Assembly: GCA_964632255.1 (NCBI GenBank)
Contig: CAZWCA010000009.1
Coordinates: 4,394-68,393 of the forward strand
Reading direction: 5' to 3'
Source of the DNA: an uncultured Smithella sp.
GTDB lineage: Bacteria > Desulfobacterota > Syntrophia > Syntrophales > Smithellaceae
Length of the DNA stretch: 64,000 bases
Below are positions 42,174 to 62,444 of this stretch, one piece after another (the stretch's first letter is position 1; each line of letters starts with the position of its first letter). Below the pieces are notes generated by a model. It searched no databases. It worked only from the letters and a program-made list of their open reading frames with translations, and was not told the DNA's origin. Both the position numbers and the translations under genes were made by a program.

Positions 42174-42515
42174 TTAGCCTACGGCGACGCTTCCAACCTC
42201 ACCTGTACGCACTCTGATACAGTCATCCATAGGTAAAACAAAAATTTTCCCGTCCCCGATTTTCCCTGAACGAGCCCCCTTGATAATTGCATCCACGGCG
42301 GGTTTGACAAAATCATCGTTCACTGCTATCTCGAATCGTACCTTATCCAGTAGATTGACCTCAGTAAAAGCACCGCGATATGATTCCGTATATCCTCCCT
42401 GCGACCCGCAGCCGATAACACTGGACACAGTCATTTTTCCAACCTTGGCATTGGAAAGTGCCTGTTTGACATCAGTCAGTTTTTCCGGCTGTACAATTGC
42501 TACGATTAGTTTCAT
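42174..42515 (-). CDS. glnK: P-II nitrogen regulatory protein (GlnK-type, amtB-linked)
   Basis: 113 aa. MKLIVAIVQPEKL...T-loop GSQGGYTESYRGA...GKIGDGKIFVLPMDDCIRVRTGE. Immediately downstream of amtB. Confidence 0.92.
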   Translation of the reverse strand: MKLIVAIVQPEKLTDVKQALSNAKVGKMTVSSVIGCGSQGGYTESYRGAFTEVNLLDKVRFEIAVNDDFVKPAVDAIIKGARSGKIGDGKIFVLPMDDCIRVRTGEVGSVAVG

Positions 42516-42558
42516 AATATTCTCCTTTGCAGAAAATAGCCTTGAAAGTAAAAATATC

Positions 42559-44049
42559 TTACTTTGTCAGGAACCCCTGGAAGTCAGGGTAAGCTTTTGA
42601 ACCATGCTCACCAAGATCCAGCCCTGAAATTTCCTCTTCACGTGATACTCTCAACCCCGCCACGAGTTTGATGAGATACCAGAATATAAGAGCACCAACT
42701 AATGTAAAAGCACCAACTGCGGCAACGCCGGCAGCCTGGGCACCAAGAAGCTTTAAGCCGCCGCCGAATAAAAGACCGTTACCCGTAGCCGTTCCCGTAA
42801 TCTTGTCAACGGCGAAAAGACCAACCGCCAATGTTCCCCATATGCCATTAACTAAATGAACCGAAAGGGCACCAACGGGATCATCGATTTTAAGTTTGTC
42901 AAAAGTAATAACCGCCAGAACTACAATTACACCGGCAATCAAACCGATTATTGCAGCTGAGCCGACGTTGACAAAGGCGCAGGGAGCGGTAATCGCTACC
43001 AGACCGGCCAGGGCACCGTTGATGATCATGGAAAGGTCGGGTTTTTTCTGCAGAATCCAGGAAGTAGCCGTTGAACTCAGAATCGCCATTGCCGCGGCGG
43101 TGTTGGTTGTTACCGCGATATGCGCAATTGCGCTGCCATCACCTACCCCCATTGTAGAACCGGGGTTAAATCCGAACCAACCGAACCACAAAACAAGTCC
43201 TCCCAGTGTAACAATTGACATATTGTGTCCGAAAATTGGATTAATAGAACCATCAGCACGGTATTTTCCAACACGCGGGCCTAGAAGCAGTACACCAGCC
43301 AGGGCCGCCCATCCGCCGACGGAGTGAACAACGGTGGAACCGGCAAAGTCAAACATCCCCATAGATTGAAGGAAACCGCCACCCCAGATCCAGTGACCGG
43401 TAATGGGATACATAATTCCAACCAATAAGAAGGAGAAGAAGATAAAGGAATGAAATTTAATCCTTTCCGCTACGACTCCCGAAACAATGGTAGCCGCTGT
43501 TCCGGCAAAAACAAGCTGAAAGAAAAATTTAGCCCACAGCGGAACGCCGGTCCAGTTAATTGCTGAATAAACTCCCTTATATGCATCGCCTATAGCCGGA
43601 CTGTTATCAGCCCCTCCGACAAAGAATATTCCTTCAAGACCTGCAAATGGACTGCCGTTTCCAAACATCAGCCCCCAGCCGATTATCCAGAAGGCAGCCG
43701 AGGAAATTGCAAAAACAATGAAATTCTTCGCCAGGATGTTTACTGCGTTTTTAGCACGGCATAATCCCGATTCCACCATAGCAAATCCAAGATTCATAAA
43801 AAAAACAAGAAAAGCCGCGAACAACACCCAGACGGTGTCGATTCCCACCTGCATGGAGCTTTTTAACGTATCTACGGCCTTTTGCGTCACGTCTTTTACT
43901 GTTGCCTCCGTTACGGCTTTGACCGGAGCAACTGCCCCTGCAGCAGCCGGCGCCGATTGTCCCTGAGGTGTTTCCTGTGCAAGAACAATCATACTGGAAA
44001 CAAAAAATAATCCTATAATAACAAACAAAATGGTGATTAGCTTTTTCAT
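42559..44049 (-). CDS. amtB: ammonium transporter
   Basis: 496 aa. Signal peptide, 11-12 TM segments, DFAGSTVVHSVGGWAALAG and HLVNGIWGTLAVGLFA twin-His signatures. Confidence 0.95.
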   Translation of the reverse strand: MKKLITILFVIIGLFFVSSMIVLAQETPQGQSAPAAAGAVAPVKAVTEATVKDVTQKAVDTLKSSMQVGIDTVWVLFAAFLVFFMNLGFAMVESGLCRAKNAVNILAKNFIVFAISSAAFWIIGWGLMFGNGSPFAGLEGIFFVGGADNSPAIGDAYKGVYSAINWTGVPLWAKFFFQLVFAGTAATIVSGVVAERIKFHSFIFFSFLLVGIMYPITGHWIWGGGFLQSMGMFDFAGSTVVHSVGGWAALAGVLLLGPRVGKYRADGSINPIFGHNMSIVTLGGLVLWFGWFGFNPGSTMGVGDGSAIAHIAVTTNTAAAMAILSSTATSWILQKKPDLSMIINGALAGLVAITAPCAFVNVGSAAIIGLIAGVIVVLAVITFDKLKIDDPVGALSVHLVNGIWGTLAVGLFAVDKITGTATGNGLLFGGGLKLLGAQAAGVAAVGAFTLVGALIFWYLIKLVAGLRVSREEEISGLDLGEHGSKAYPDFQGFLTK

Positions 44050-44115: not shown

Positions 44116-44970
44116 TTAGAACGTGATACTGGCCATCAATCCACCGTATAAAAAAGAGCTGTCGCGATCATTAGGAGCTGCTCCACTCAAGCCGAATCCC
44201 TTCATTTCATTCTTGGCATCCGTTGAAAGCGGGAATACATAAGAAACAGTCGGTGTCAGTGTTATATAGGATGTAACTTTGACAGGGAGGCTGACACTTA
44301 TGCTCCCATCGTGAAAATTGCTGAATTTTTTATTTGTCGCCAGAGCATCCCCGTCAAATTCGGGATAAGTGGACTCATCGGTGCTCAGCAGATAGCTTGC
44401 CGTTGCCGCAAGTTTTAGAGATATCATCTTATTGAATTCGAACGCATGGGAAATACCCAGTAGAAAATACCAGTTATGGTAATGATCGATTTCCCGATAA
44501 ACCGTTAATGTCGGTGACAAAATTGTATTCAGGCCCACAGAGGCAAAGATTTCCTGAGAGTCGGGCCTGTCCGCCGCATCAGGATTAAGTGAACTGAGGC
44601 CGTAATATATGTAACCGCCGCCTATATTGAAAAGTCCCAGTGTTTTTGAATAGGAAAGAGTAAAATCCGTTTCGTTCCACGCGCTGCTGTAACTTTTGTC
44701 ATCTGTTCCGCTGTAATAGGGACGCGTATCCATGTTGCCCCATAAATTGGCGGAAAATCCCTTATAACCAACCGTAAAGGAAGGCTGGATTACAATACTG
44801 TTCCTGCTGAGTTCATACCCTCTCCAGATATACTTGCTTAAAACGGCTGCCGTTGCATCTGCCGTTGGTTTTTCCTCCTCGGCAAAGACCGGCGAAACTG
44901 AAGCAGTTAAAAAACACAGAGCCAGAAAACTGACAACTAATAGCACCCTAATCTGCAACCATTTTCTCAT
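44116..44970 (-). CDS. outer-membrane beta-barrel porin (TorF / Gcw_chp-like family)
   Basis: Start taken at MRKWLQIRVLLVVSFLALCFLTASVSPVFA (signal peptide). SKYIWRGYELS...QPSFTVGYKGFSANLWG, alternating beta-strand pattern, terminal F. First gene of the amtB-glnK operon. Confidence 0.75.
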   Translation of the reverse strand: MRKWLQIRVLLVVSFLALCFLTASVSPVFAEEEKPTADATAAVLSKYIWRGYELSRNSIVIQPSFTVGYKGFSANLWGNMDTRPYYSGTDDKSYSSAWNETDFTLSYSKTLGLFNIGGGYIYYGLSSLNPDAADRPDSQEIFASVGLNTILSPTLTVYREIDHYHNWYFLLGISHAFEFNKMISLKLAATASYLLSTDESTYPEFDGDALATNKKFSNFHDGSISVSLPVKVTSYITLTPTVSYVFPLSTDAKNEMKGFGLSGAAPNDRDSSFLYGGLMASITF

Positions 44971-45034
44971 AATGCTTCCTCCTGAACATCTTCTAATTTT
45001 TTTAAACAGTCCCGGTAACTGATGCCCTTTTATT

Positions 45035-45050
45035 TGCGAATGTCGTGCCG
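45035..45050 (-). promoter_or_regulatory. sigma54 -24/-12 promoter upstream of porin-amtB-glnK
   Basis: Minus-strand reading is CGGCACGACATTCGCA, with GG-N10-GC spacing exact. Close to the consensus TGGCACG-N4-TTGCA, ~65 nt upstream of the porin ATG. Confidence 0.7.
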
Positions 45051-45361
45051 CATCCATAACATATTGATATCACAGTATATATGTTCAAAAACAGGACATT
45101 ACATACTTAATAATAAACGATATTGTTATAAAATATTTTATTTTCCTTCCACTTTGTAGGATTGCAGGCTGCATGCATGGCAGTGATCGCTGATGAGGAA
45201 AAAATGATAAGAAAAAAATAAATAAATTTTGATATGGTTATAGAATTTTTTATCCGGTGGTTGAGTTTTTTGATGCCGAAAAAATAGATAAGGGAATTTT
45301 TATTTATTCGGCATGTTCTGGATTTAAGAAATGAGGCCGGTTTCAGATGTCTACTTAATAC

Positions 45362-46909
45362 TTATTTAAAAGAGGCAGGCTCGATGCCGTATTTCACGAT
45401 CCGCAATCCCATAACTCTTTCGGTCATGCCCAATACACGAGCTGCCTTGGCCATATTCCCGCGGCAGCGCTTCAATTCTTCCTCGATGATTTCACGTTCA
45501 AAGGCGGATAGTTTTTCTCTGAAAGTTCCCCCGCGCTTTGCACGTACCGTCATGTTGTTTTTTTGCAGACTATGAGGAAGATGGTTGCAACTAATAGTGC
45601 CGTCCGTACTCAACAGAACTGCTCTTTCAATGTAATTCTCCAGTTCTCTAATATTGCCGGGCCAGTTATAATTTACCAGAAGATCGATTGCCGGCCATGA
45701 TATGCCGGATATTTCCTTCCGCATATCTTTTGAGTATTTTTCAATAAAATGGTTGGCCAGTAACGGAATGTCGGTTTTACGTTCTCTAAGAGGCGGCACG
45801 GCAATAGGAAATATATTTAACCGGTAATATAAATCTTCCCTGAACATACCCTGCGCTACCCGTTCTTCAAGTTTACCGTTTGTGGCCGCAATAATTCGAA
45901 CATCCACTTTGATGGTTTCATTATCGCCTACCCGTTCAAATGCTTTCTCCTGGATGACACGCAGTAATTTTGCCTGAAGCGGTAATGTAAGCTCCCCGAT
46001 CTCGTCAAGAAAGATCGTACCCTGGTCGGCTATTTCAAAACGTCCCTTGCGCAAGGCAATAGCGCCGGTAAAGGCTCCTTTCTCATGCCCGAACAACTCG
46101 CTTTCGATAAGAGAATCAGGCAGGGCCGCACAATTGACCGTTACGAAAGGTTTGTCTGCCCGGTTTGACTGATAATGGATGGCATTGGCCACCCGTTCTT
46201 TACCAACGCCGCTTTCACCCAGCACCAGGACGGTAATATTTGTTCCGCATACTTTATCAATCGCAGTATAAATGCCCTGCATAGCCTTGGAGTTGCCGAT
46301 CATATTTCGCGGAGCATGCCGGATCCTTAATTCGTCGTGGAGGCGATTATTTTCCTCACGCACCATTTCCAGCTCTTCTTCAGCTAATTGCCTCAATCGG
46401 ACTGCCTGAGAAATGCTTGAAGCAATAATGGTCAACAGACGGACATCCTCTTCAAATGAAACATTTTCGTTAAACAGGCGGTCAACGGACAGGGCGCCTA
46501 TTATTTCATTACCGATTCTTATAGGAACACAAATGAAGGCAATTTCGTCCTTATCCAATGTTCTTGAACCTGTTTTGTTCAGGAAAAAGGGATCATGAGA
46601 AATCCTCGGGACAATGGCCGGTTCCCCTGTGTCAATTACCTTACCCGTAATTCCCTCACCCAGACGATATCGCCCCTTCATCAATTCCTCAGGAAGTAAA
46701 CCGTACGCCTCATCAATAAAAATTTCACCGCTGTTGCGATTCAGAATCGTGAGTGTGCCCCGGAGCATATCCATATGCTCGGCCATCATCCGCAGAATCG
46801 GTTTCAATGCCGTTTTCAGATCCAGATTTTCACTTAAATTCCGGCTGATTTCGAAAAGGAGTGTCAATTCTTTTATGGCCCGTAAGGCCTTGTCTTCCGG
46901 TGTAGCCAT
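45362..46909 (-). CDS. nifA: NifA-type sigma54-dependent transcriptional activator (GAF - AAA+ - Fis HTH)
   Basis: 515 aa. GAF domain, GESGVGKE Walker A, intact [23 protein letters not shown]-terminal [29 protein letters not shown]. Confidence 0.85.
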
Positions 46910-46962: not shown

Positions 46963-48360
46963 TCAGTCTTCTTCATGATCCCTGATTTTTAACCGCTGCA
47001 TACTTGGAGGTAAATGATTATGATGAATAACGCCGTCAGTACTTAAAACTACCGCCCTTTCTATATACCCTTTCAATTCCTGTACATTGCCCGGCCACTT
47101 ATAATTAATGAGGGAATCCATCGCCGAATGAGAGATGCTGTTTACTTCTTTGCCGGCTTCCTTTGCATATTGCTCAATAAAGTAGTTAGCCAGTAAAACA
47201 ATATCCTGTCTGCGTTCCCTCAGAGGAGGAACGATGATAGGAAATACATTAAGGTGGTAATACAGATCTTCTCTGAACTTTCCTTTCCGCACCTGACTTT
47301 CCAAGTCGCTGCTTGTTGCCGCAATGATGCGTACATTTGTGCCGCACTGTCTGTTTCCCCCGCATCTTTCAAATTTCCCCTCTTTAAGGACGTGTAACAA
47401 TTTTGCCTGGAGTAATGGTGTAAGAGCTGCAATCTCGTCAAGAAACAAAGTTCCTCCCCTTGCAATATCGAGTCCGCCTCTTCGCCGGCCGCCAGCGCCA
47501 ATGATAGTGCTTTCTTCATGCCCGAACAATTCACTTTCGATGATCGGTTCCGGAAGGTTGCTGCATACAACCTTTATGAAAGCCTGATTTGACCGGCTTG
47601 ACTGGCTATGTATCGCTCTGGCTATTCTTTCTTTCCCGACGCCGCCTTCACCAATAATGAGGACATTTGAATTTGAATCGCTTACTTTATAGATATAGTG
47701 ACAAATATTTTGTATAGCTTTGGAATCGCCGATAATTGCATCCGTTCTATTCCGCGCGTATAGTTCACTTTTAAGATTTTTTATTTCTTCGAGAAGTCTC
47801 TCATGTTCCTCTTCCGCCGCTTCCCGCAATTGAACCGCCTGAGCAATAATTAATGCGATTGACTTTAAAATTCTAATGTCTTCCTCAATGGGGACGGAAT
47901 TATCGAATATCCGGTCAACGGCGAGCGCACCTGTAATCTTTCCGCGGGTTTTTATGGGCACGCAGATACATGCCGCTTCATCCTTAACAACAAGACGTCT
48001 GGATATGTTTTTATCAAGGGAAAGCAGCCTTTCCGATACGGTCAGCATAACTGCGGGATGCATTGTATAAATAACCTTGCTTACTATTCCCCGGTCTGCC
48101 TGATACCCCATCTGCATGCCGATGCCATCAGAAAAGCCGTGTCTTTCCTCGATAATGATATCGTGTGAACTCTTTTTCAAGAGTATTATTGTACCGCGTT
48201 TCATCTCCGTGTACTCTGCGATAATAGGCAATATCAACTTGGATATTTTCCTGAGATCGATGGTCTCATTCAGTCTGCTGCTTATATTGAAAAGCAGTGC
48301 AAGCTCTTTTACTTGACATGAAGCCATCGTCTCTGCATTTGTGTTATAAATTTTACTCAT
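46963..48360 (-). CDS. NifA-like GAF-AAA+ protein lacking the DNA-binding HTH and with a degenerate GAFTGA loop
   Basis: 465 aa, colinear with nifA through GAF and AAA+ (GEGGVGKE, RIIAATS, WPGNVQEL). It reads [17 protein letters not shown] where GAFTGA should be, and ends ...LPPSMQRLKIRDHEED with no HTH. Confidence 0.85.
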   Translation of the reverse strand: MSKIYNTNAETMASCQVKELALLFNISSRLNETIDLRKISKLILPIIAEYTEMKRGTIILLKKSSHDIIIEERHGFSDGIGMQMGYQADRGIVSKVIYTMHPAVMLTVSERLLSLDKNISRRLVVKDEAACICVPIKTRGKITGALAVDRIFDNSVPIEEDIRILKSIALIIAQAVQLREAAEEEHERLLEEIKNLKSELYARNRTDAIIGDSKAIQNICHYIYKVSDSNSNVLIIGEGGVGKERIARAIHSQSSRSNQAFIKVVCSNLPEPIIESELFGHEESTIIGAGGRRRGGLDIARGGTLFLDEIAALTPLLQAKLLHVLKEGKFERCGGNRQCGTNVRIIAATSSDLESQVRKGKFREDLYYHLNVFPIIVPPLRERRQDIVLLANYFIEQYAKEAGKEVNSISHSAMDSLINYKWPGNVQELKGYIERAVVLSTDGVIHHNHLPPSMQRLKIRDHEED

Positions 48361-55205: not shown

Positions 55206-55946
55206 TCAATAATTATTCCAATGAATGATTTTTCGTTCTGCCATGATCATAATCTTGTTCATTATCAATCCAAGCAACCCCACCAGGATAATAGTTAAAT
55301 ACATTTCAGGAGTTGCATAAGCGGTTTGGGCGTATACAACCCTGCTTCCAAGACCGTATTTCGCGCCCACCAGCATTTCAGTAACAATTCCGACTATGAC
55401 ACCCATGGACAGGGCAACTCTAGTTCCAATGAATATTTGAGGAAGCGCATCGAAGATCACTATCCTGCATAAAACCTGACGCCATGAAGCGCCCATTATC
55501 CTCGCAATTCTCACTCTGGTCTTATTGCCATTGATAACTCCCATCGACGTATTCAGTATAATGATCAACATGCATCCGAAAATAATCACGGCGATTCTCG
55601 ATTCTTCCCCGGTACTAAAAATCAACATGGACAAGGGGTAAACAAGAATAGGCGGGATAGAACGGAAGAAATCCAGCGCTGTTTCGACATATGGACGTAT
55701 CCTGCCGAAATAGCCCAAAAGAATTCCCATCGGAATTCCAGCTGCCAGTGCTGCCAGGACTCCAATAACTACCCTTATGAAGGAATAAACCATGTCCAGG
55801 TAAATACTTTTTTCAGCGAAGAGCCTGATGCCTACATTAAGCGTTTCTTGCGGAGTCGGCAGGAACAACGGATTAACCAGTTGAGTCCAGGATAATCCTT
55901 CCCATAAGAGAACTATTGCCGAAAATGTGATGATGTATTTTTTCAT
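55206..55946 (-). CDS. ABC transporter permease, NitT/TauT (SsuC/TauC-like) family
   Basis: Start taken at MKKYIITF. Six TM segments, and an EAA-like loop ARIMGASWRQVLCRIVIFDALPQIF. Embedded in the nif operon. Confidence 0.85.
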   Translation of the reverse strand: MKKYIITFSAIVLLWEGLSWTQLVNPLFLPTPQETLNVGIRLFAEKSIYLDMVYSFIRVVIGVLAALAAGIPMGILLGYFGRIRPYVETALDFFRSIPPILVYPLSMLIFSTGEESRIAVIIFGCMLIIILNTSMGVINGNKTRVRIARIMGASWRQVLCRIVIFDALPQIFIGTRVALSMGVIVGIVTEMLVGAKYGLGSRVVYAQTAYATPEMYLTIILVGLLGLIMNKIMIMAERKIIHWNNY

Positions 55947-55971
55947 TTTCTGCTCCGCACTATTGTTGCTC

Positions 55972-56796
55972 TCATGAGAAGCGCGCTTCACCTTGGAAAC
56001 AAATCCGATGTTCATGATCGTGGTTAATCCTTTGAAGAACGCGGCTGTTCCACGCGGGATTCGTTTTCTCCAGTATTATCTTGGCCGGTTTATCCGACAG
56101 GAAAATAACCCTGCTGGACAAATAGAACAAATGCTCTATATCATGAGCCACAATCAAAGTAGGGATCTTGATCTCTTCCCGTATTTCCAGAAGTTTATCC
56201 ATGAGCCATTCGCCATTCGAGCAGTCGAGGGCTGAAAATGGTTCGTCCATAAGCATCACATCCGGATCAGAGATTAATCCCCGTATAATTGCTGCATATT
56301 GCTGCTGTCCCCCGCTCAATTGGTATGGATATTTATCAATTGAGAACGGGATTCTTATAAGATTCGTAAGCCAGCATAATTTCTCTGCTATGAGACTCTT
56401 GTTCCATTTTTTTAAGACCAAGGGAAATAGGATATTATCCCTGATTGATAACCAGGGAAAAAGGCTGCTCCGGAAGTCTTGGAAAATATAAGAGATGCTA
56501 TTTTCTCCCGGCTTTTTTCTCCCTATAGTTATGTGCCCGGAATCCGGTTCGATGATGCCGGAAATCATATTGAGCAAAGTAGTTTTTCCACATCCGTTCG
56601 GGCCAAAAATCCCCACAACTTCATCATAGTCCACGGAAAGGCTGAATTCCTCAAAAATCCGTTCTTCCTTGCCGGCAGAAATTCTTGCCTTCTTGCATAT
56701 CTTGTTAATATGAATTCCGTTCACCATCATCCCAGTTCCATTCATTATCAATTGACCAGTGAATTGTTTGAAAAAAACTGAACTCCAAATTTTCAA
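55972..56796 (-). CDS. ABC transporter ATP-binding protein, NitT/TauT (SsuB/TauB-like) family
   Basis: GIFGPNGCGKTT Walker A, LSGGQQQ signature, LMDEPFSALD Walker B. Start uncertain: TTG overlapping the SBP stop at 56796, or internal ATGs at 56745/56730. Confidence 0.88.
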   Translation of the reverse strand: MKIWSSVFFKQFTGQLIMNGTGMMVNGIHINKICKKARISAGKEERIFEEFSLSVDYDEVVGIFGPNGCGKTTLLNMISGIIEPDSGHITIGRKKPGENSISYIFQDFRSSLFPWLSIRDNILFPLVLKKWNKSLIAEKLCWLTNLIRIPFSIDKYPYQLSGGQQQYAAIIRGLISDPDVMLMDEPFSALDCSNGEWLMDKLLEIREEIKIPTLIVAHDIEHLFYLSSRVIFLSDKPAKIILEKTNPAWNSRVLQRINHDHEHRICFQGEARFS

Positions 56797-57758
56797 TTAG
56801 CTCCACGGAAGAGAGCGTTTGAGAGATCAACCTTTTCTTTGATTATCCCCAATTTTTTATGTGAATCACCGATTCTTATCAGTTTAGCGGGTGTGAATTG
56901 CGACGATTTCAAAAACAAGGAATCCGGATACTTATTAACGAAAGACCTTTGCGCTTCGGGAAGGAATTTCCCCATACTTACTTTAGACTCTTGCTGATTG
57001 GCAGTTATGTATTCGATTGCCTCATCAAGGGAGTTAATAATTCGTTGGGCAACAACTGGATTCTTGTTAACAAAATCCTTGGCCATGCAAAAACTCGCAA
57101 AAGGAAATGGAGATCCTAAATATTTTGGAACCAGAGCTTCCTTGAGCAGGAGACGGCCGATACCTTTCTCAATGCATGCTGTAACCGCAGGATCATTTGT
57201 AAACATGGCGTCGACTATGCCTGACTCGAGAGAGGCGGGGGTCATGGCCGGCGCTACCTGTTGTATAATAACTTCGTCTAATTTTACGTTATTTTTTTGA
57301 AGGATGAGTTCAAGCCAGACTTTATACGCAAATGTTGGAAGAATTCCTATTCTTTTACCTTTAAGGTCGGAGATTTTTTTTATCGATGAATCCTTTTTTA
57401 CGACGAACATGCTCACAGGATGTTTGTTATCTTCCAGCATCAGAGTGGCATAATATAATTCTTTTTTGCTTCTGAGCTGAGCACTCAAGATAATAGGAAA
57501 GGCTGCGTAACCGGCAACATCAAGTTTCCCGCTGCAAAGAGCATCGATTAGCGGTTGAGCTGTATCAAACTTTACCAGATCGACATCAATACCGTTCTTT
57601 TTGAATATCCCCTTTTCTTGCGCTACAAAAATAGGAAGGCTTATCCGTAAAGTGCTACATCCTATCCTCACCCTCTCGTTGCCGGCGGCCGGATTACCGG
57701 CGCACAAAAATATTACGAACACAATGACCCAGATCAATCTTTCGGAATTCTTATTCAT
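56793..57758 (-). CDS. ABC transporter periplasmic substrate-binding protein, NMT1/SsuA-like
   Basis: 321 aa. Signal peptide, then the SsuA/NMT1-type pattern (LPIFVAQEKGIFKKNGIDVDLVKF...DVAGY...KGKRIGI...). Confidence 0.82.
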   Translation of the reverse strand: MNKNSERLIWVIVFVIFLCAGNPAAGNERVRIGCSTLRISLPIFVAQEKGIFKKNGIDVDLVKFDTAQPLIDALCSGKLDVAGYAAFPIILSAQLRSKKELYYATLMLEDNKHPVSMFVVKKDSSIKKISDLKGKRIGILPTFAYKVWLELILQKNNVKLDEVIIQQVAPAMTPASLESGIVDAMFTNDPAVTACIEKGIGRLLLKEALVPKYLGSPFPFASFCMAKDFVNKNPVVAQRIINSLDEAIEYITANQQESKVSMGKFLPEAQRSFVNKYPDSLFLKSSQFTPAKLIRIGDSHKKLGIIKEKVDLSNALFRGAN

Positions 57759-57778: not shown

Positions 57779-58513
57779 TTATTTAGCGAAGTCTAAGGTT
57801 TCATCTCCTGTTTCTGCTGTGCGGATGCGGATAGATTCGGATATGGGCATCACAAAAATCTTACCATCACCCGGTTTCCGGGTACGGTTAGCGGAGATAA
57901 TTGTCTCCGCTACTTTATTAACCAGCTTATCCGGTACGACAACAGAAAGCATACGCTTGGGAATAAGCCGTTGTGTATTGCCCAGTTGCGCGATAGCTTC
58001 CTCATAACCCTGTTCCGCCCCCTTGAGCACCTTGAAATCCAACACACCCTTGCCGCGTCCCAGACACTCGCGGACATGCAGGGATGAGATCTCTGCATCG
58101 ATTAGGGCCTCTTTCGTCTGGTTGATTTTGTTCATCCGGATAATAGCCACAACTTCTTTCATCCGGGCACCTTCCGCCTTGTCAGCATCCGTCTCTTTAA
58201 TACCGGAGCTGACCGTGTAGACTTCCTCCACGGGGGAAACGAAAATCTTGCCGTCTCCGAATGCACCGTTGGCTCCTGTGCGGGCAGCACCTATGACCGT
58301 TTTGATGACCATGTCCTTCTCCGCGTCCGGTACCACGATGATCAGTAATTCCTTGGGAATCCCGTCATAAGTAATGTCACCGATCTTGATTCCGCGCTGC
58401 CGTCCGCGTCCGGATACGTTCATGCGCGTAACAGCGGGGAATCCCTCGGCCATTAAGTTTTCTAAAACCTTATCAGCCTTTTCCGGCCTGACGATTGCTC
58501 TAACCATCATCAT
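57779..58513 (-). CDS. fused NifI1-NifI2 (two tandem P-II domains in one ORF)
   Basis: 244 aa. Residues 1-~112 are NifI1-like (short T-loop, GRGRQRG...FGDGKIFVSPV). Residues 118-244 are NifI2-like (long T-loop, GRGKGVLDF...IPKRM...PGDGKIFVMPI). The internal ATG at 58162 keeps a GAAGGTG SD-like sequence 6 nt upstream. Confidence 0.88.
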   Translation of the reverse strand: MMMVRAIVRPEKADKVLENLMAEGFPAVTRMNVSGRGRQRGIKIGDITYDGIPKELLIIVVPDAEKDMVIKTVIGAARTGANGAFGDGKIFVSPVEEVYTVSSGIKETDADKAEGARMKEVVAIIRMNKINQTKEALIDAEISSLHVRECLGRGKGVLDFKVLKGAEQGYEEAIAQLGNTQRLIPKRMLSVVVPDKLVNKVAETIISANRTRKPGDGKIFVMPISESIRIRTAETGDETLDFAK

Positions 58514-58517
58514 CGCT

Positions 58518-58797
58518 TTACCTCCTCACGTTTCGTTGTTCAGTTTCTAATCCCCTAATCCAATATCCTATTTGATCAGAGCAGAGCTTCCATCTCTTCC
58601 GTAGCCAGAGGTTTGGGGATGACGAATACCTGGTTTTCATCAATGACCTCAGCAATTTTGCGGTATTCATCAGCATGGTTAGGCGAGTGTCGCAGGCGAT
58701 AACGGATTTGCGGTTGATTCCGGTGCGCTGCAATCGTATTTTGTGTAGTAGTTGATTTCCCGATTCCGCCTTTGCCATAATAGCAATCTTCTTTCAA
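58518..58797 (-). pseudogene. nifH: nifH remnant: frameshifted and internally deleted dinitrogenase reductase gene
   Basis: About 280 nt where ~830 nt is expected. One frame reads ..[19 protein letters not shown].., then ..[32 protein letters not shown] (NifH C-terminus). The neighbouring frame holds KKIAI before the P-loop and ..[16 protein letters not shown] ([11 protein letters not shown] lacking PKADS). The switch I/II regions and the 4Fe-4S cysteines are absent. Confidence 0.85.
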
Positions 58798-58820
58798 TTT
58801 TATGTTTTTTTTAGCATAGG

Positions 58821-58836
58821 ATCAAAATACATGCCA
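58821..58836 (-). promoter_or_regulatory. sigma54-like promoter upstream of the nifH remnant, with non-consensus -12
   Basis: Minus-strand reading is TGGCATGTATTTTGAT. The -24 element and spacing fit, but the -12 reads TTGA instead of TTGC. ~25 nt upstream of the remnant. Confidence 0.4.
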
Positions 58837-59393
58837 AACAGGAAAGTGATATGAGATACTTTCGGGGAAATATATTTTTATATATATTATCAAATTGTTA
58901 TTAATTGCTTTAACTTCGATCAATGACTCGAAAACCACATTTTATAAATTAAATAAATGCAACGTAACGGTAGGAAATACAGAATTGTCATACTGTAGCG
59001 TATGATTTCTTTGCCGGCTTACCCTCCAGAAACCCAATGCCTTTGAGTTAAGAACATATTATAAGCTAAACCAATTGGGATTAATCAATATGACGGTTCC
59101 TTGCATGCGACAAAGTTTCGATACAAAAGATCATACATCTGCGTAGACTTCGTGAATAATCGTACCTTCTTGTTTATGTGAGCAAAAAATTATCATAATC
59201 ATTTGAACTCATGTAATATTTTTCCTTGCAGTGCCTTAGTAATACAATATAATCCACCTCATGAAATATTTTTTATGATCCGTTTTTGTCTTTTCAGCAG
59301 TTATGACTTCCTGTAGCATTCACACTTAAAATTATTTTTAAGTATTTGTTTTATCTTGATTTAAATAAATATCAAAATAAATCGTTAAAAAAT

Positions 59394-59409
59394 TGGTATG
59401 CTATATGCT
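59394..59409 (+). promoter_or_regulatory. sigma54-like -24/-12 promoter upstream of the PII-like/HTH operon
   Basis: TGGTATGCTATATGCT, with GG-N10-GC spacing exact. TGGTATG resembles the Klebsiella nifH promoter as I remember it. ~200 nt upstream of the 59613 ATG. Confidence 0.5.
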
Positions 59410-59612
59410 CTCTCAAAAATCACATGTTAGTTGAAAGCCGGGCATAACGAGATAAAAAGACAAGTTGCTCCGGTATTATGATTACGGAAACAAGGGCGCA
59501 CGGGAAATAGAAAGGATTTATCCAGCAATGACGGGGTGAACCTTACAAGGTAACCAGCCAATGAAACCGTGGGAATGAGGACCGGGGAAGCAGCATTGTA
59601 AAGGAGAGAGCA

Positions 59613-59957
59613 ATGAAAAGAATTGAAGCAATTATCCAGTTGGATAAAATTGAAGGCGTGTCCAATGCATTGAAAAAAATCGGTCATAATGGACTGGCGA
59701 TTACCGAAATCAAAGGCTATGGATATCAGGAAAATCTGCTGCGCCGGTTTCGTGGTGTTTCCTTTTCCAATAAGGTAGATCGCATCAACAAGGCAAAGGT
59801 TGAACTTACTGTAAATGAAAATGAAATTGATGAAATTGTCGACGCAATCCGCAAATCAGCATATGCCGGCAGCTTCATGAATGAAAAAATATTTATTCAT
59901 TCTGTAGATGATGCGTTGCGGATTTGCTTCGGAAATAAAGAAGTAAATGCCCTATAG
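59613..59957 (+). CDS. divergent P-II-like (GlnB-fold) protein
   Basis: 114 aa. MKRIEAIIQLDKIEGVSNALKKIGHNGLAITEIKGYGYQ...KAKVELTV follows the P-II beta-alpha-beta pattern. The T-loop and the GDGKIFV motif are degenerate (MNEKIFIHSV). AAGGAG SD. Confidence 0.7.
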   Translation: MKRIEAIIQLDKIEGVSNALKKIGHNGLAITEIKGYGYQENLLRRFRGVSFSNKVDRINKAKVELTVNENEIDEIVDAIRKSAYAGSFMNEKIFIHSVDDALRICFGNKEVNAL

Positions 59958-59974
59958 CCTTTACGGAGGGATGT

Positions 59975-60172
59975 ATGAAAGATAATACATCTGTTATTGG
60001 AGAAAACATGTTGGAGCGTTGCGTAGCCGGTTTTGAGAAAACAGTCATCGTCCATGCCCTGACCAGAACAAGAGGCAATCAATCAGCCGCAGCCCAGTTG
60101 CTGGGAACAACGAAACGTGTTTTGACATATAAAGTTCATAAATATAAAATCGACTGCGAACAATACAAATAG
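59975..60172 (+). CDS. stand-alone Fis-type HTH protein (equivalent to a NifA/NtrC C-terminal DNA-binding domain)
   Basis: 65 aa. FEKTVIVHALTRTRGNQSAAAQLLGTTKRVLTYKVHKYKI matches the ..E...I..AL....GN...AA..LG..R.TL..K..KY.I pattern. GGAGGG SD. Confidence 0.75.
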   Translation: MKDNTSVIGENMLERCVAGFEKTVIVHALTRTRGNQSAAAQLLGTTKRVLTYKVHKYKIDCEQYK

Positions 60173-60204
60173 AAAAGTACTAAAGGAATTTCGAAGGAGT
60201 CAGA

Positions 60205-60372
60205 ATGAACGTATTAAAAGCTTCACGAAATGACCGTTTTTGTCACATCAATGAAAGCCCGGATTCCGGTTACAGATCTGAATTTCAACTAAAGATATTA
60301 TCAAGGCAACCGCTTCGAATGTTTTTGAAGCCTTTGATTCCACATGCACGAAATAGGCTTTGCCGAAAATGA
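60205..60372 (+). CDS. possible small basic protein (55 aa), not in ORF track
   Basis: ATG 5 nt after AAGGAG. Reads MNVLKASRNDRFCHINESPDSGYRSEFQLKILSRQPLRMFLKPLIPHARNRLCRK*. No homology recognised. Confidence 0.3.
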   Translation: MNVLKASRNDRFCHINESPDSGYRSEFQLKILSRQPLRMFLKPLIPHARNRLCRK

Positions 60373-60546
60373 GACTTTAGTTAAAAATTAAATGTAATTG
60401 TAATCAAGAAAATACCAATATGTAAGAGAGTCGAGAAAGTTGATAATGCTTAATATTTACATTGATGACCATTTAAGTAGTGTCGGTATTGATAGCTGTG
60501 CGCTTTAACTCTTTCCTTCCTAGGGACGTTTCCACCTCCTTCAGCC

Positions 60547-60591
60547 GCCGCTGCATTTTGTTTTGGGCGCAAAGTGCAGCGGCATTTTTTT
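60547..60591 (+). terminator. rho-independent terminator
   Basis: GCCGCTGCA-(19-nt loop)-TGCAGCGGC followed by ATTTTTTT. Sits between the PII-like/HTH operon and the anfH promoter. Confidence 0.7.
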
Positions 60592-60665
60592 GCGGATTTC
60601 CTCACTATTAATATTGACTAAGATCTTATTTGTCAGTTCCCGAATCACCGTTTTGGGGACTCTAC

Positions 60666-60681
60666 TGTACATTCAAGAACA
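60666..60681. promoter_or_regulatory. candidate NifA-type UAS (TGT-N10-ACA)
   Basis: TGTACATTCAAGAACA, ~150 nt upstream of the anfH -24 element. The pattern is short, so a chance occurrence is plausible. Confidence 0.35.
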
Positions 60682-60829
60682 ATCTCCGTTGAAATGCACG
60701 TACATGAACGCACGAGAAATTAAAAATAGCTGTGCTTAAGCGTCATCGTGCTAAATGCCTTGTGTTTTCATCATAACTCCTATGATTAACCATATAAATA
60801 CTTTACCTTTTTATAGATGCCTCAATCCC

Positions 60830-60845
60830 TGGCACATATTCTGCT
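60830..60845 (+). promoter_or_regulatory. sigma54 -24/-12 promoter of the anf operon
   Basis: TGGCACATATTCTGCT (TGGCAC-N5-CTGCT, GG-N10-GC exact), ~60 nt upstream of the anfH ATG. Confidence 0.75.
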
Positions 60846-60869
60846 CATCAGGAAAATAATACTTCTTAA

Positions 60870-61733
<864 letters not shown>

Positions 61734-61751: not shown

Positions 61752-62069
61752 ATGAAAATGATCAAGGCAATCATTCGTCCCGAAGCAGCGGATACAGTGG
61801 CGGACAGCCTGGCTGAAGCCGGATTCTTCTCAATGACGAAAATCAATGCGTTCGGCCGTGGAAAGCAAAAAGGGATTACCGTTGAAAACATGCATTACGA
61901 CGAGTTACCGAAGACGATGATCATGATGGTCGTCGAGGACAAGGACGTCGAAGAGGTGCTGAGACTCATAAAGTACAAGGCTTACACCGGAAACTTCGGC
62001 GACGGGAAAGTATTTGTAACGCCGGTTGACTATGCGTTCACCGTCCGCACCGGCGAAAAGACCTTATAG
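61752..62069 (+). CDS. nifI1: NifI1-type P-II protein of the anf operon
   Basis: 105 aa. MKMIKAIIRPE...FGRGKQKG...GNFGDGKVFVTPV. AAGGAG SD. Between the H and D genes. Confidence 0.9.
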   Translation: MKMIKAIIRPEAADTVADSLAEAGFFSMTKINAFGRGKQKGITVENMHYDELPKTMIMMVVEDKDVEEVLRLIKYKAYTGNFGDGKVFVTPVDYAFTVRTGEKTL

Positions 62070-62078
62070 GAGGATCGT

Positions 62079-62444
62079 ATGAAGGAAATCACGGCTATCA
62101 TCCGTCCCAAAAAAATCACCGCGACGAAAACCTCCCTGGAGAACCTCGGATTCCCCGGCATGACCGCGATACAGGTCCTCGGCAGGGGTCACCAGAGAGG
62201 AATCGCCGGAGAATTGAACTACGAAGTCAGTCCCAACATCATAGGAAAGTCCTGCGGCATGAAATACATTCCCAAACGCATGATCAAGATCGTCGTACGC
62301 GACGAGGACGTCGACAAAGTCGTCCGTACGATTGTCGATGTAAACCAGACGGCGCAGATTGGCGACGGGAAAATCTTCGTGAGTCCCGTTTTCGACGCAC
62401 TCAGAGTGCGCACGGACGAGACCGGCGACAACGCCCTGGCATAG
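62079..62444 (+). CDS. nifI2: NifI2-type P-II protein of the anf operon
   Basis: 121 aa. MKEITAIIRPKK...LGRGHQRG + extended T-loop ...YIPKRMIKIVV...IGDGKIFVSPV. GGAGGA SD. Confidence 0.9.
   Translation: MKEITAIIRPKKITATKTSLENLGFPGMTAIQVLGRGHQRGIAGELNYEVSPNIIGKSCGMKYIPKRMIKIVVRDEDVDKVVRTIVDVNQTAQIGDGKIFVSPVFDALRVRTDETGDNALA

Follow-up and report, generated by a model that had tools for sequence, protein, structure and literature searches.

The subject of this work is a small gene unit on contig CAZWCA010000009.1 of an uncultured Smithella sp., studied within a stretch of 64,000 nucleotides (nt) that is called the window here and to which all positions refer. The unit occupies positions 59394-60591 of the plus strand; the molybdenum (Mo) nitrogenase (nif) cluster lies upstream of it on the minus strand, and downstream come anfH, starting at 60906, and then nifI1, nifI2 and anfD (TIGR01861, 1074 bits). 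From 5' to 3' the unit consists of a predicted sigma54-type -24/-12 promoter, TGGTATGCTATATGCT (59394-59409), a glnK pseudogene (59448-59601), a gene encoding a divergent P-II protein of 114 amino acids (aa) (59613-59957), a gene for a 65-aa stand-alone DNA-binding domain (DBD) of the Fis/NtrC type with a helix-turn-helix (HTH), hereafter called mini-HTH (59975-60172), a non-coding 3' region (60173-60546), and an intrinsic terminator (60547-60591). A first-pass annotation of this DNA had regarded the unit as an orphan operon, a description that has to be given up, as it is homologous to an operon recurrent in Smithellaceae and Syntrophaceae. Its anatomy and origin can be explained, with high confidence, as those of a sigma54-driven two-gene remnant of such a Smithellaceae-type nitrogen operon.

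Let us start with the borders of the unit. In TGGTATGCTATATGCT, which was found by a pattern match, GG-N10-GC has the spacing of a sigma54 promoter within a TGGYAY/TGCW context, in the correct orientation and at the correct distance, and the sequence is similar to TGGCACACTATATGCC, which is found 5' of operons of its relatives that encode a permease fused to a PII domain (permease::PII, described below). Only two strict sigma54 matches exist in the 64 kb, this one and the anfH promoter (60830-60845), a count that is weak as a statistic since 0.72 matches are expected and two or more appear in 13% of shuffled sequences. A homologous metagenomic locus, L001, served as the main comparison for an identity profile. 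There, 15 of the 16 promoter bases are kept against about 70% in the flanks, and, against 73% at third codon positions, identity amounts to 94% in the promoter, 91% in the 57 nt 5' of the PII-like start (59556-59612, including the Shine-Dalgarno sequence (SD) AAGGAGAG) and 93% in the terminator, with the remaining non-coding DNA at 59-75%. By spacing and conservation together, 59394-59409 is thus a predicted sigma54-dependent promoter. The terminator, according to its fold, has a 15-bp stem (60547-60583) followed by a T-run, and resembles those 3' of the outer-membrane-protein (OMP)-like gene in the related loci L012 and L021. A sigma54-like promoter and a clean terminator had already been proposed in the first-pass annotation, and both proposals have held. 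A riboswitch or another known RNA was also considered for the leader and the 3' region; Rfam gave no match at the gathering threshold in either, the hits (for example, mmgR/suhB over the terminator) being at chance level (E>0.4), and the fold of the leader reaches a z-score of only -1.9.

The product of 59613-59957 matches Pfam PF00543 over residues 1-104 with 64.6 bits (cut-off 25; E 1.1e-17). Its AlphaFold model, with a mean predicted local distance difference test score (pLDDT) of only 66 from a 5-sequence alignment, runs beta-alpha-beta-beta-alpha-beta (strands 2-9, 29-33, 60-67 and 92-97; helices 10-22 and 69-83), residues 35-56 being of low confidence; the protein is thereby predicted to have the double beta-alpha-beta core and the long T-loop of P-II. 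Neither by equivalog score nor by ligand-site residues is it a canonical GlnB or GlnK. Against the NCBIfam equivalogs for GlnK/GlnB it scores 75.6 bits with PRK10665 (cut-off 181) and 70.5 bits with PRK10858 (cut-off 202). The T-loop base reads GYGYQEN (canonical G37-R38-Q39-K40-G41), the B-loop reads AGSFMNEKIF, that is, SFMNEKIF in the place of GDGKIF (canonical G84-x-x-G87-D88-G89-K90), the C-terminus reads RICFGN in the place of RIRTGE (canonical R101-x-R103), and in the alignment a Phe stands at the position equivalent to Tyr51, the modification site of the T-loop. Equivalents of Arg38, Lys40 and Gly41, of Tyr51, of Gly87-Asp88-Gly89 and of Arg103 are therefore all missing. The earlier description of a 114-aa P-II protein with degenerate motifs is borne out by these data, whereas the suggestion made with it, that this protein could render DNA binding signal-dependent, becomes doubtful for the window copy as far as ordinary PII ligands are concerned, because the canonical residues contacting ATP and 2-oxoglutarate have been lost. 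Probably, the protein no longer reads the usual PII ligands.

To which branch of the PII family does it belong? It shares 44-55% identity with the second PII protein (PII2) of permease::PII operons, 30-38% with GlnK and GlnB, and 27-29% with NifI1 and NifI2 of the window, so that sequence comparison places it in the transporter-associated PII2 clade. NifI1 and NifI2 are likewise PII paralogues encoded beside nitrogenase genes, and in the window nifI1-nifI2 follow anfH (61752-62444); the PII-like gene differs from them in lying upstream of anfH, outside the nifH-I1-I2-D position and with its own promoter and terminator, as well as in its clade. Its closest relatives are rare. Only four were found in the protein database, two of which are arranged as amt-glnK-PII2', and the locus L002 shows the order amt-glnK-PII2'-OMP. 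The listed metagenome matches are all PII genes of greater distance (54% identity or less), the HTH gene being present at 3 of 80 loci, and none of the listed PII genes with similar N-termini from outside the Smithellaceae-type lineage is accompanied by such an HTH.

The mini-HTH gene starts 17 nt 3' of the PII-like stop codon and has its own SD, GGAGGG. Its product is recognized by Pfam HTH_8 (PF02954; 42.9 bits, cut-off 22; E 3.9e-11) and has no match to an AAA+ domain, in agreement with the first-pass reading of a stand-alone 65-aa HTH. In the predicted structure (pLDDT 87), a long helix (10-31) is followed by a helix-turn-helix (36-43 and 47-56). Foldseek superposes it on 2m8g, the DBD of a sigma54 activator, with a root-mean-square deviation of 0.6 over 46 residues, and on Fis with a TM score of 0.71, and sequence searches against PDB return 2m8g (E 1.9e-9), ZraR, Fis and NtrC. 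It is not Fis itself: NF001659 gives 23.7 bits against a cut-off of 99, only helices B-D can be aligned, and compared with the 98 aa of Fis the 65-aa protein is without the N-terminal beta-hairpin arms and helix A. Nor is it a sigma54 enhancer-binding protein (EBP), as it has no Sigma54_activat match and its NCBIfam matches cover only the last ~50 residues of EBP models. The mini-HTH thus shares the HTH_8 domain and its fold with Fis and with the DBDs of EBPs such as NtrC, ZraR and Aquifex NtrC4 and NtrC1, from which it is distinguished by conserved cysteines in its family, and from the EBPs also by the absence of a receiver or GAF domain and of an AAA+ domain, because of which it cannot activate sigma54.

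The first-pass annotation itself had raised the possibility that the HTH gene is a decayed fragment of a longer activator gene. This is not what we see, because short homologues are numerous and the core is under purifying selection. The protein database contains 33 homologues, all of 65-77 aa, 65-80% identical and with HTH_8 as the sole domain. A scan of genomes, with one genome per species, yielded ~50 copies at ~41 loci (L008-L048) with at least 57% identity, almost all in metagenome-assembled genomes of Smithella, Smithellaceae or Syntrophaceae, some of which have two copies; matches at 57% identity or below were C-terminal HTHs of full-length activators with GAF and sigma54-activation domains (GAF-sigma54 activators). 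Short proteins with a lone HTH_8 domain are no rarity in general, and the mini-HTH family, in an exhaustive profile search, makes up a few clusters at 50% identity among them; profile searches found no dedicated Pfam or NCBIfam family that covers it. In the alignment of the family 22 positions are invariant, among them Cys16 and Cys61, and Cys20 is near-invariant, position 20 being Thr in two family members other than that of the window. The window's mini-HTH, the only one in the window, keeps all the invariant positions, scores 118.6 bits against the family profile, and is 82% identical in its core to the nearest orthologues. Compared with ~50 orthologues, the core shows a pN/pS of 0.15-0.3 (about 0.17 for the window copy) with synonymous sites saturated. 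By these measures the mini-HTH is a genuine stand-alone gene under purifying selection and not a decayed activator. As a separate observation, Cys16 and Cys20 are separated by a single turn of the long helix, with Cys61 near the C-terminus, and these residues may form a redox or metal site.

The label of an NtrC/NifA-type HTH given in the first-pass annotation is only half right. The fold is that of the DBD of sigma54 activators, and in this respect the label stands; the NifA part does not, as the mini-HTH profile gives 48-66 bits with HTHs of GAF-sigma54 activators other than NifA (48-53 for those of L013, L026 and L034, and 66 for that of L049) and 24-36 bits with NifA-type HTHs, including 31.9 for the NifA of the window. 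The GAF-sigma54 activator class is found in the Smithellaceae loci L013, L026 and L034 and also in other phyla.

The pairing of the two genes is real, as had been proposed. In the neighbourhood tally, which covered 52 copies, a PII gene lies directly 5' of the mini-HTH gene in 40 of the 42 copies whose start could be fixed, 38 of them at a distance of 9-21 nt; the gap measures 9-11 nt when the gene in front is glnK and 20-21 nt when it is that of PII2, and the outliers are one overlap and one gap of 179 nt. Eight of the remaining ten copies also follow a PII gene, and those of L035 and L039 do not. At these two loci (L035 700-3613 and L039 6495-8186), the mini-HTH gene comes after an NtrC-type response-regulator activator of 428 aa that has its own HTH. 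The parent operons are of two types. In one, amt (410 aa) is followed by glnK (113 aa) and the mini-HTH gene, and then usually by the OMP-like gene, which is without a Pfam family. In the other, a gene for an APC permease with a fused PII domain (627 aa) is followed by PII2 (112 aa) and the mini-HTH gene, and then by the OMP-like gene, a glutamine synthetase gene or an unknown gene of 453 aa. Sigma54 promoters, TGGCATTATCCTTGC or TGGCACACTATATGCC, are found upstream of both types, and nearby there are genes for NifA-like activators, PtsP and glutamine synthetase, and sometimes nifHI1I2DK: in L008 the amt-glnK-HTH operon is directly 5' of nifH-I1-I2-DK, and in L041 it is one operon away. The conserved partners of the pair are thus operons for ammonium or amino-acid transporters, with nif only occasionally nearby, in these two loci, and anf nowhere else, and the conserved link with nif and anf that the first-pass annotation had in mind was not found. 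Its remark that the pairing is not a described regulatory module agrees with our search of full-text, open-access literature, in which no description of a PII plus mini-HTH module was found, an absence that is not proof.

Several features of these operons are worth recording on their own. The APC permease with a C-terminal PII domain, 627-647 aa in length, is encoded in L004 (10499-12382), L009, L010, L020, L024, L025, L028, L030, L033, L036 and L088-L090; behind its gene there is in every case another PII gene and then the mini-HTH gene, an arrangement that looks like a covalent version of Amt-GlnK for an amino-acid transporter. The OMP-like proteins (~280-320 aa, with a signal peptide, a YIWRG motif and a C-terminus ending in LSFTF; no match in Pfam or NCBIfam) are regularly encoded beside amt-glnK(-HTH), for example in the window (44116-45057, minus strand), in L005 (476-1324) and in L012 (2461-3384), and may be porins related to ammonium or nitrogen. 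A GAF-domain PtsP (enzyme I of the nitrogen phosphotransferase system, ~750 aa) is often encoded just 3' of amt-glnK-HTH-OMP, as in L021 (1621-3870), L015, L023, L038 and L043.

How, then, can a PII2-type gene and a mini-HTH gene stand here without a transporter? Traces of lost genes on both sides of the pair provide a well-supported answer. What the first-pass annotation took for a leader of ~200 nt is a glnK pseudogene: 59448-59552 matches positions 19-53 of the GlnK profile, the T-loop region, with two in-frame stops (E 1.7e-6), a blastx comparison with the GlnK of L002 gives 56% identity over 34 aa (E 1.8e-6), and translation of the frames reveals a frame-shifted C-terminal fragment of GlnK, ending in VGMRTGEAAL and a stop codon at 59601, that abuts the SD of the PII-like gene. 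L001 holds the complementary end of glnK, the C-terminal 27 residues (profile positions 86-112; E 1.6e-11). Derivation of the leader from a permease::PII fusion was also considered and dropped, the fragment fitting GlnK of the L002 type much better. No similarity to Amt exists in 58800-59612, and the unit is not itself an amt-glnK(-HTH) operon, with no amt upstream and only a glnK fragment with stops; the intact amt-glnK of the window is elsewhere (42174-44049) and is without the HTH.

On the 3' side, 60173-60546 is 59-75% identical to L001, about the level of third codon positions. The 55-aa basic open reading frame (ORF) proposed there as a possible gene (60205-60372) is spurious: profile search finds no family for it, in L001 its start is lost and an in-frame stop is present, and identities at the three codon positions (79/84/68%) do not differ significantly over 43 codons. 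The last ~40 nt before the terminator can be aligned with the C-terminal codons, GGVTL(S/N)FT(F/H) and stop, of the OMP gene of relatives (L012/L001). An OMP pseudogene spanning the whole 3' region was considered too, and since an OMP profile gave no significant match over this region in the window, and in L001 just weak traces at the two termini, the claim is restricted to these ~40 nt. A motif before the terminator, CCACCTCCTTCA, had suggested a 3' small RNA with an anti-SD-like sequence. Its counterpart in L012 is the short spacer that separates the OMP stop codon from the terminator, and the likeness between the two is loose; most of the 3' region, moreover, changes at roughly the rate of third codon positions, and the idea was dropped.

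The window's mini-HTH nests in the clade of HTHs partnered with GlnK, and for this reason the ancestral operon was likely amt-glnK-PII2'-HTH-OMP or, in general terms, [transporter]-glnK-PII2-miniHTH-OMP. On this account the transporter gene has been lost, glnK persists as a pseudogene in the 5' leader and the OMP gene as a decayed trace in the 3' untranslated region, and what survives is the promoter and the terminator with the PII2-type and mini-HTH genes between them.

Is the surviving pair then still functional, or are both ORFs leftovers of a decaying operon that are nonfunctional or on the way to becoming pseudogenes in this genome? Several observations weigh against function in the window copy. 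The pair is flanked by pseudogenes, glnK in the leader and nifH 600 nt away, and by OMP traces; in L001, the nearest homologous locus, the HTH gene is deleted except for the first few codons, so that at least one lineage can do without the pair. The PII-like protein carries 14 lineage-specific substitutions where its sisters have 2-3, among them the window-specific replacement of otherwise invariant B-loop glycines (Gly to Met and Gly to Glu), and it is ~10 identity points farther from outgroups than its relatives are, that is, it evolves faster. The mini-HTH has Gly-Phe at the near-invariant Asp19-Cys20, although Cys16 and Cys61 are kept. A recent loss of function may thus have taken place, and a nonfunctional relic stays a serious alternative for this copy. 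On the other hand, both ORFs are intact with strong SDs, selection is visible in the dN/dS of 0.25 between the PII-like protein and its L001 counterpart (74% aa identity) as well as in the low pN/pS of the mini-HTH, the promoter, SD region and terminator are far better conserved than neutral sites, and the identical sequence of the unit was obtained in an independent sequencing run (L003). On balance, we consider it probable that the window copy is still functional, and unlikely that it is a mere relic.

What could a functional pair do? The mechanism outlined here is built on domain identities, gene order and motif enrichment, and the remainder is inferred. Under nitrogen limitation, a sigma54 activator would fire the promoter, and the PII-like protein and the mini-HTH would be made together. 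The mini-HTH, which amounts to the DBD of a GAF-type sigma54 activator freed from its ATPase, is expected to dimerize and to occupy the enhancer sites (upstream activating sequences) that its parent activator class recognizes. Sigma54-dependent nitrogen genes would in this way be modulated, most probably in the negative direction. The co-translated PII is a likely partner, which would sequester or release it; in the window, where the PII partner lacks the canonical ATP/2-oxoglutarate-site residues, the pair may act constitutively once expressed. This part, a competitor with a PII partner, we put forward tentatively and would not be surprised to see it fail. Taken as a blend of anatomy, origin and mechanism, the whole explanation is in our view somewhat better than even.

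Candidate enhancers do exist in the family. The palindrome ACA-W4-TGT (for example, GAACAATATTGT or GTACAAATTTGTAC) occurs in 14 of 34 upstream regions of the transporter genes against a background of 0.08 per kb, mostly ~75 nt 5' of the sigma54 promoter, a distance typical of enhancers. In many Smithellaceae loci (L012, L013, L018, L020, L042, L043, L047, L048 and others) the palindrome, with the extended form GAACA-N4-TGTTC or GTACA-N4-TGTAC, is found ~140 nt before the amt start and is a candidate enhancer. A point against the proposed mechanism is that ACA-W4-TGT is absent from 58500-61000, so that no target site was found near the window copy; in the window the palindrome is present only at 44517 and 48653, upstream of activator genes, the latter being intergenic and 5' of the gene of an activator without HTH. 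Inverted repeats near the local promoters were inspected too and turned out to be only AT-rich palindromes of low quality.

The function originally imagined for the pair was a local one: NifA/AnfA-type sites at the nif and anf promoters next to the unit would be occupied by the free HTH, in a signal-dependent manner owing to the PII-like protein. The location invites such a thought, as the unit is immediately 5' of anfH and its sigma54 promoter, a single NifA-type TGT-N10-ACA lies at 60666, ~165 nt 5' of the anfH promoter, and the amt-glnK-HTH operons of L008 and L041 are close to nifH-I1-I2-DK. Against it speak the conserved neighbours of the family, which are transporters and not nif or anf, the lower scores of NifA-type HTHs (24-36 bits) than of the other activator class (48-66 bits), the missing ligand-site residues of the PII-like protein, and the conserved terminator between the unit and anfH. 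A role of the window pair at anf or nif promoters is hence possible but unsupported, and the signal-dependent version of it seems to us quite improbable.

A third possibility concerns the activator without HTH just mentioned, a NifA paralogue encoded at 46963-48360: might the mini-HTH supply it with a DBD in trans? The paralogue is a GAF-AAA+ activator of 465 aa, the 53 nt before the next gene leave no room for an HTH, and the HTH-less state is conserved in P0041 (470 aa, 73% identical) and P0042 (476 aa, 57%); moreover, both genes are within the same nitrogen-fixation region. However, the neighbouring activators in the ~41 mini-HTH loci all carry their own HTH, no other family member adjoins a gene for an HTH-less activator, and the two genes are 11.6 kb apart on opposite strands. 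The gene of the HTH-less activator also forms a tandem with that of a complete NifA, both in the window and in L086, which fits a hetero-oligomer with NifA better. A split activator is, in our judgement, very unlikely.

The HTH-less paralogue deserves a description of its own. It consists of GAF, AAA+ and lid (46963-48360, minus strand) and lies in tandem with the complete NifA of 515 aa (45362-46909, minus strand), all its other homologues (~50% identity) carry an HTH, and in L086 the order is amt-glnK-HTH-less activator-NifA. The two may form a hetero-oligomeric activator pair. The Mo-nif cluster on the minus strand has peculiarities as well. The nifH at its head (58576-58830) is a pseudogene whose reading frame shifts in the first ~10 codons and in which the loss of ~220 internal codons has joined the P-loop to the C-terminal ~45 residues, and nifD, K, E and N look intact. 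The nifH remnant is followed by a fused NifI1-NifI2 of 244 aa with two PII domains (57779-58513, minus strand), and between nifI and nifD, an unusual position, are genes for an ABC transporter of the SsuA/taurine type (substrate-binding protein, ATPase and permease; 55206-57758, minus strand).

How does the pair relate to systems already described? The nearest is the amtB-glnK unit: relatives of the window unit have amt-glnK followed by the mini-HTH gene, the window's leader is a glnK remnant, and the PII-like protein keeps the PII fold. The window unit differs in having no transporter gene, and the described amtB-glnK unit has no HTH gene in the third place; in Actinobacteria the third gene is glnD. 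Transcription factors controlled by PII are known in the pairs GlnK-AmtR of Corynebacterium, GlnK-TnrA of Bacillus, PII-PipX-NtcA of cyanobacteria and GlnK-NifL-NifA. The concept of a PII directly governing a DNA-binding nitrogen regulator is alike, and by this analogy the tight coupling of PII and mini-HTH genes in operons suggests such a partnership. The folds are different, namely TetR, MerR and CRP there and HTH_8 here, and to our knowledge none of those factors is a stand-alone EBP DBD encoded right after a PII gene. The reverse case, sigma54 activators without a DBD, is represented by FlgR, CtcC and FleT, in which activator and DNA-binding functions are uncoupled. Here the free piece is the DBD and not the ATPase; the window also encodes a DBD-less NifA paralogue, and the mini-HTH and DBD-less activators do not co-occur systematically.

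A bolder and, we think, unlikely reading goes further than the mechanism above. In it, PII signalling in Smithellaceae and Syntrophaceae would have a dedicated DNA-binding output, the cysteine-bearing stand-alone EBP DBD translated together with GlnK or PII2. PII would hold or release the DBD according to nitrogen or energy status, perhaps also with redox or metal input via Cys16, Cys20 and Cys61, and the DBD would either vie with GAF-type sigma54 activators for palindromes such as GAACA-N4-TGTTC or act there alongside them; the window copy, stripped of its transporter, with a ligand-blind PII and immediately 5' of anfH, would have been co-opted for control of the alternative nitrogenase.

Neither domain of the pair is unusual in itself, and the local copy has degenerated; what is distinctive is the conserved, lineage-specific PII plus mini-HTH module, a variant of transcriptional control linked to PII. 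What the window contains is a shortened and in part degenerate copy of it, and its position alone is no ground for annotating a regulator specific to nif or anf. PII proteins are central sensors of nitrogen, carbon and energy in bacteria, and we know of only a handful of routes from them to transcription (NtrB, NifL/NifA, AmtR, TnrA and PipX). The hosts of the mini-HTH are syntrophic bacteria linked to methanogenesis, represented by dozens of genomes and hard to culture, for which a clear and testable gene pair is useful. If the partnership proposed here is true, a small DNA-binding protein whose gene follows those of PII proteins at 9-21 nt would be a further and very compact route from PII to transcription, and a natural case of a free EBP DBD acting in trans.

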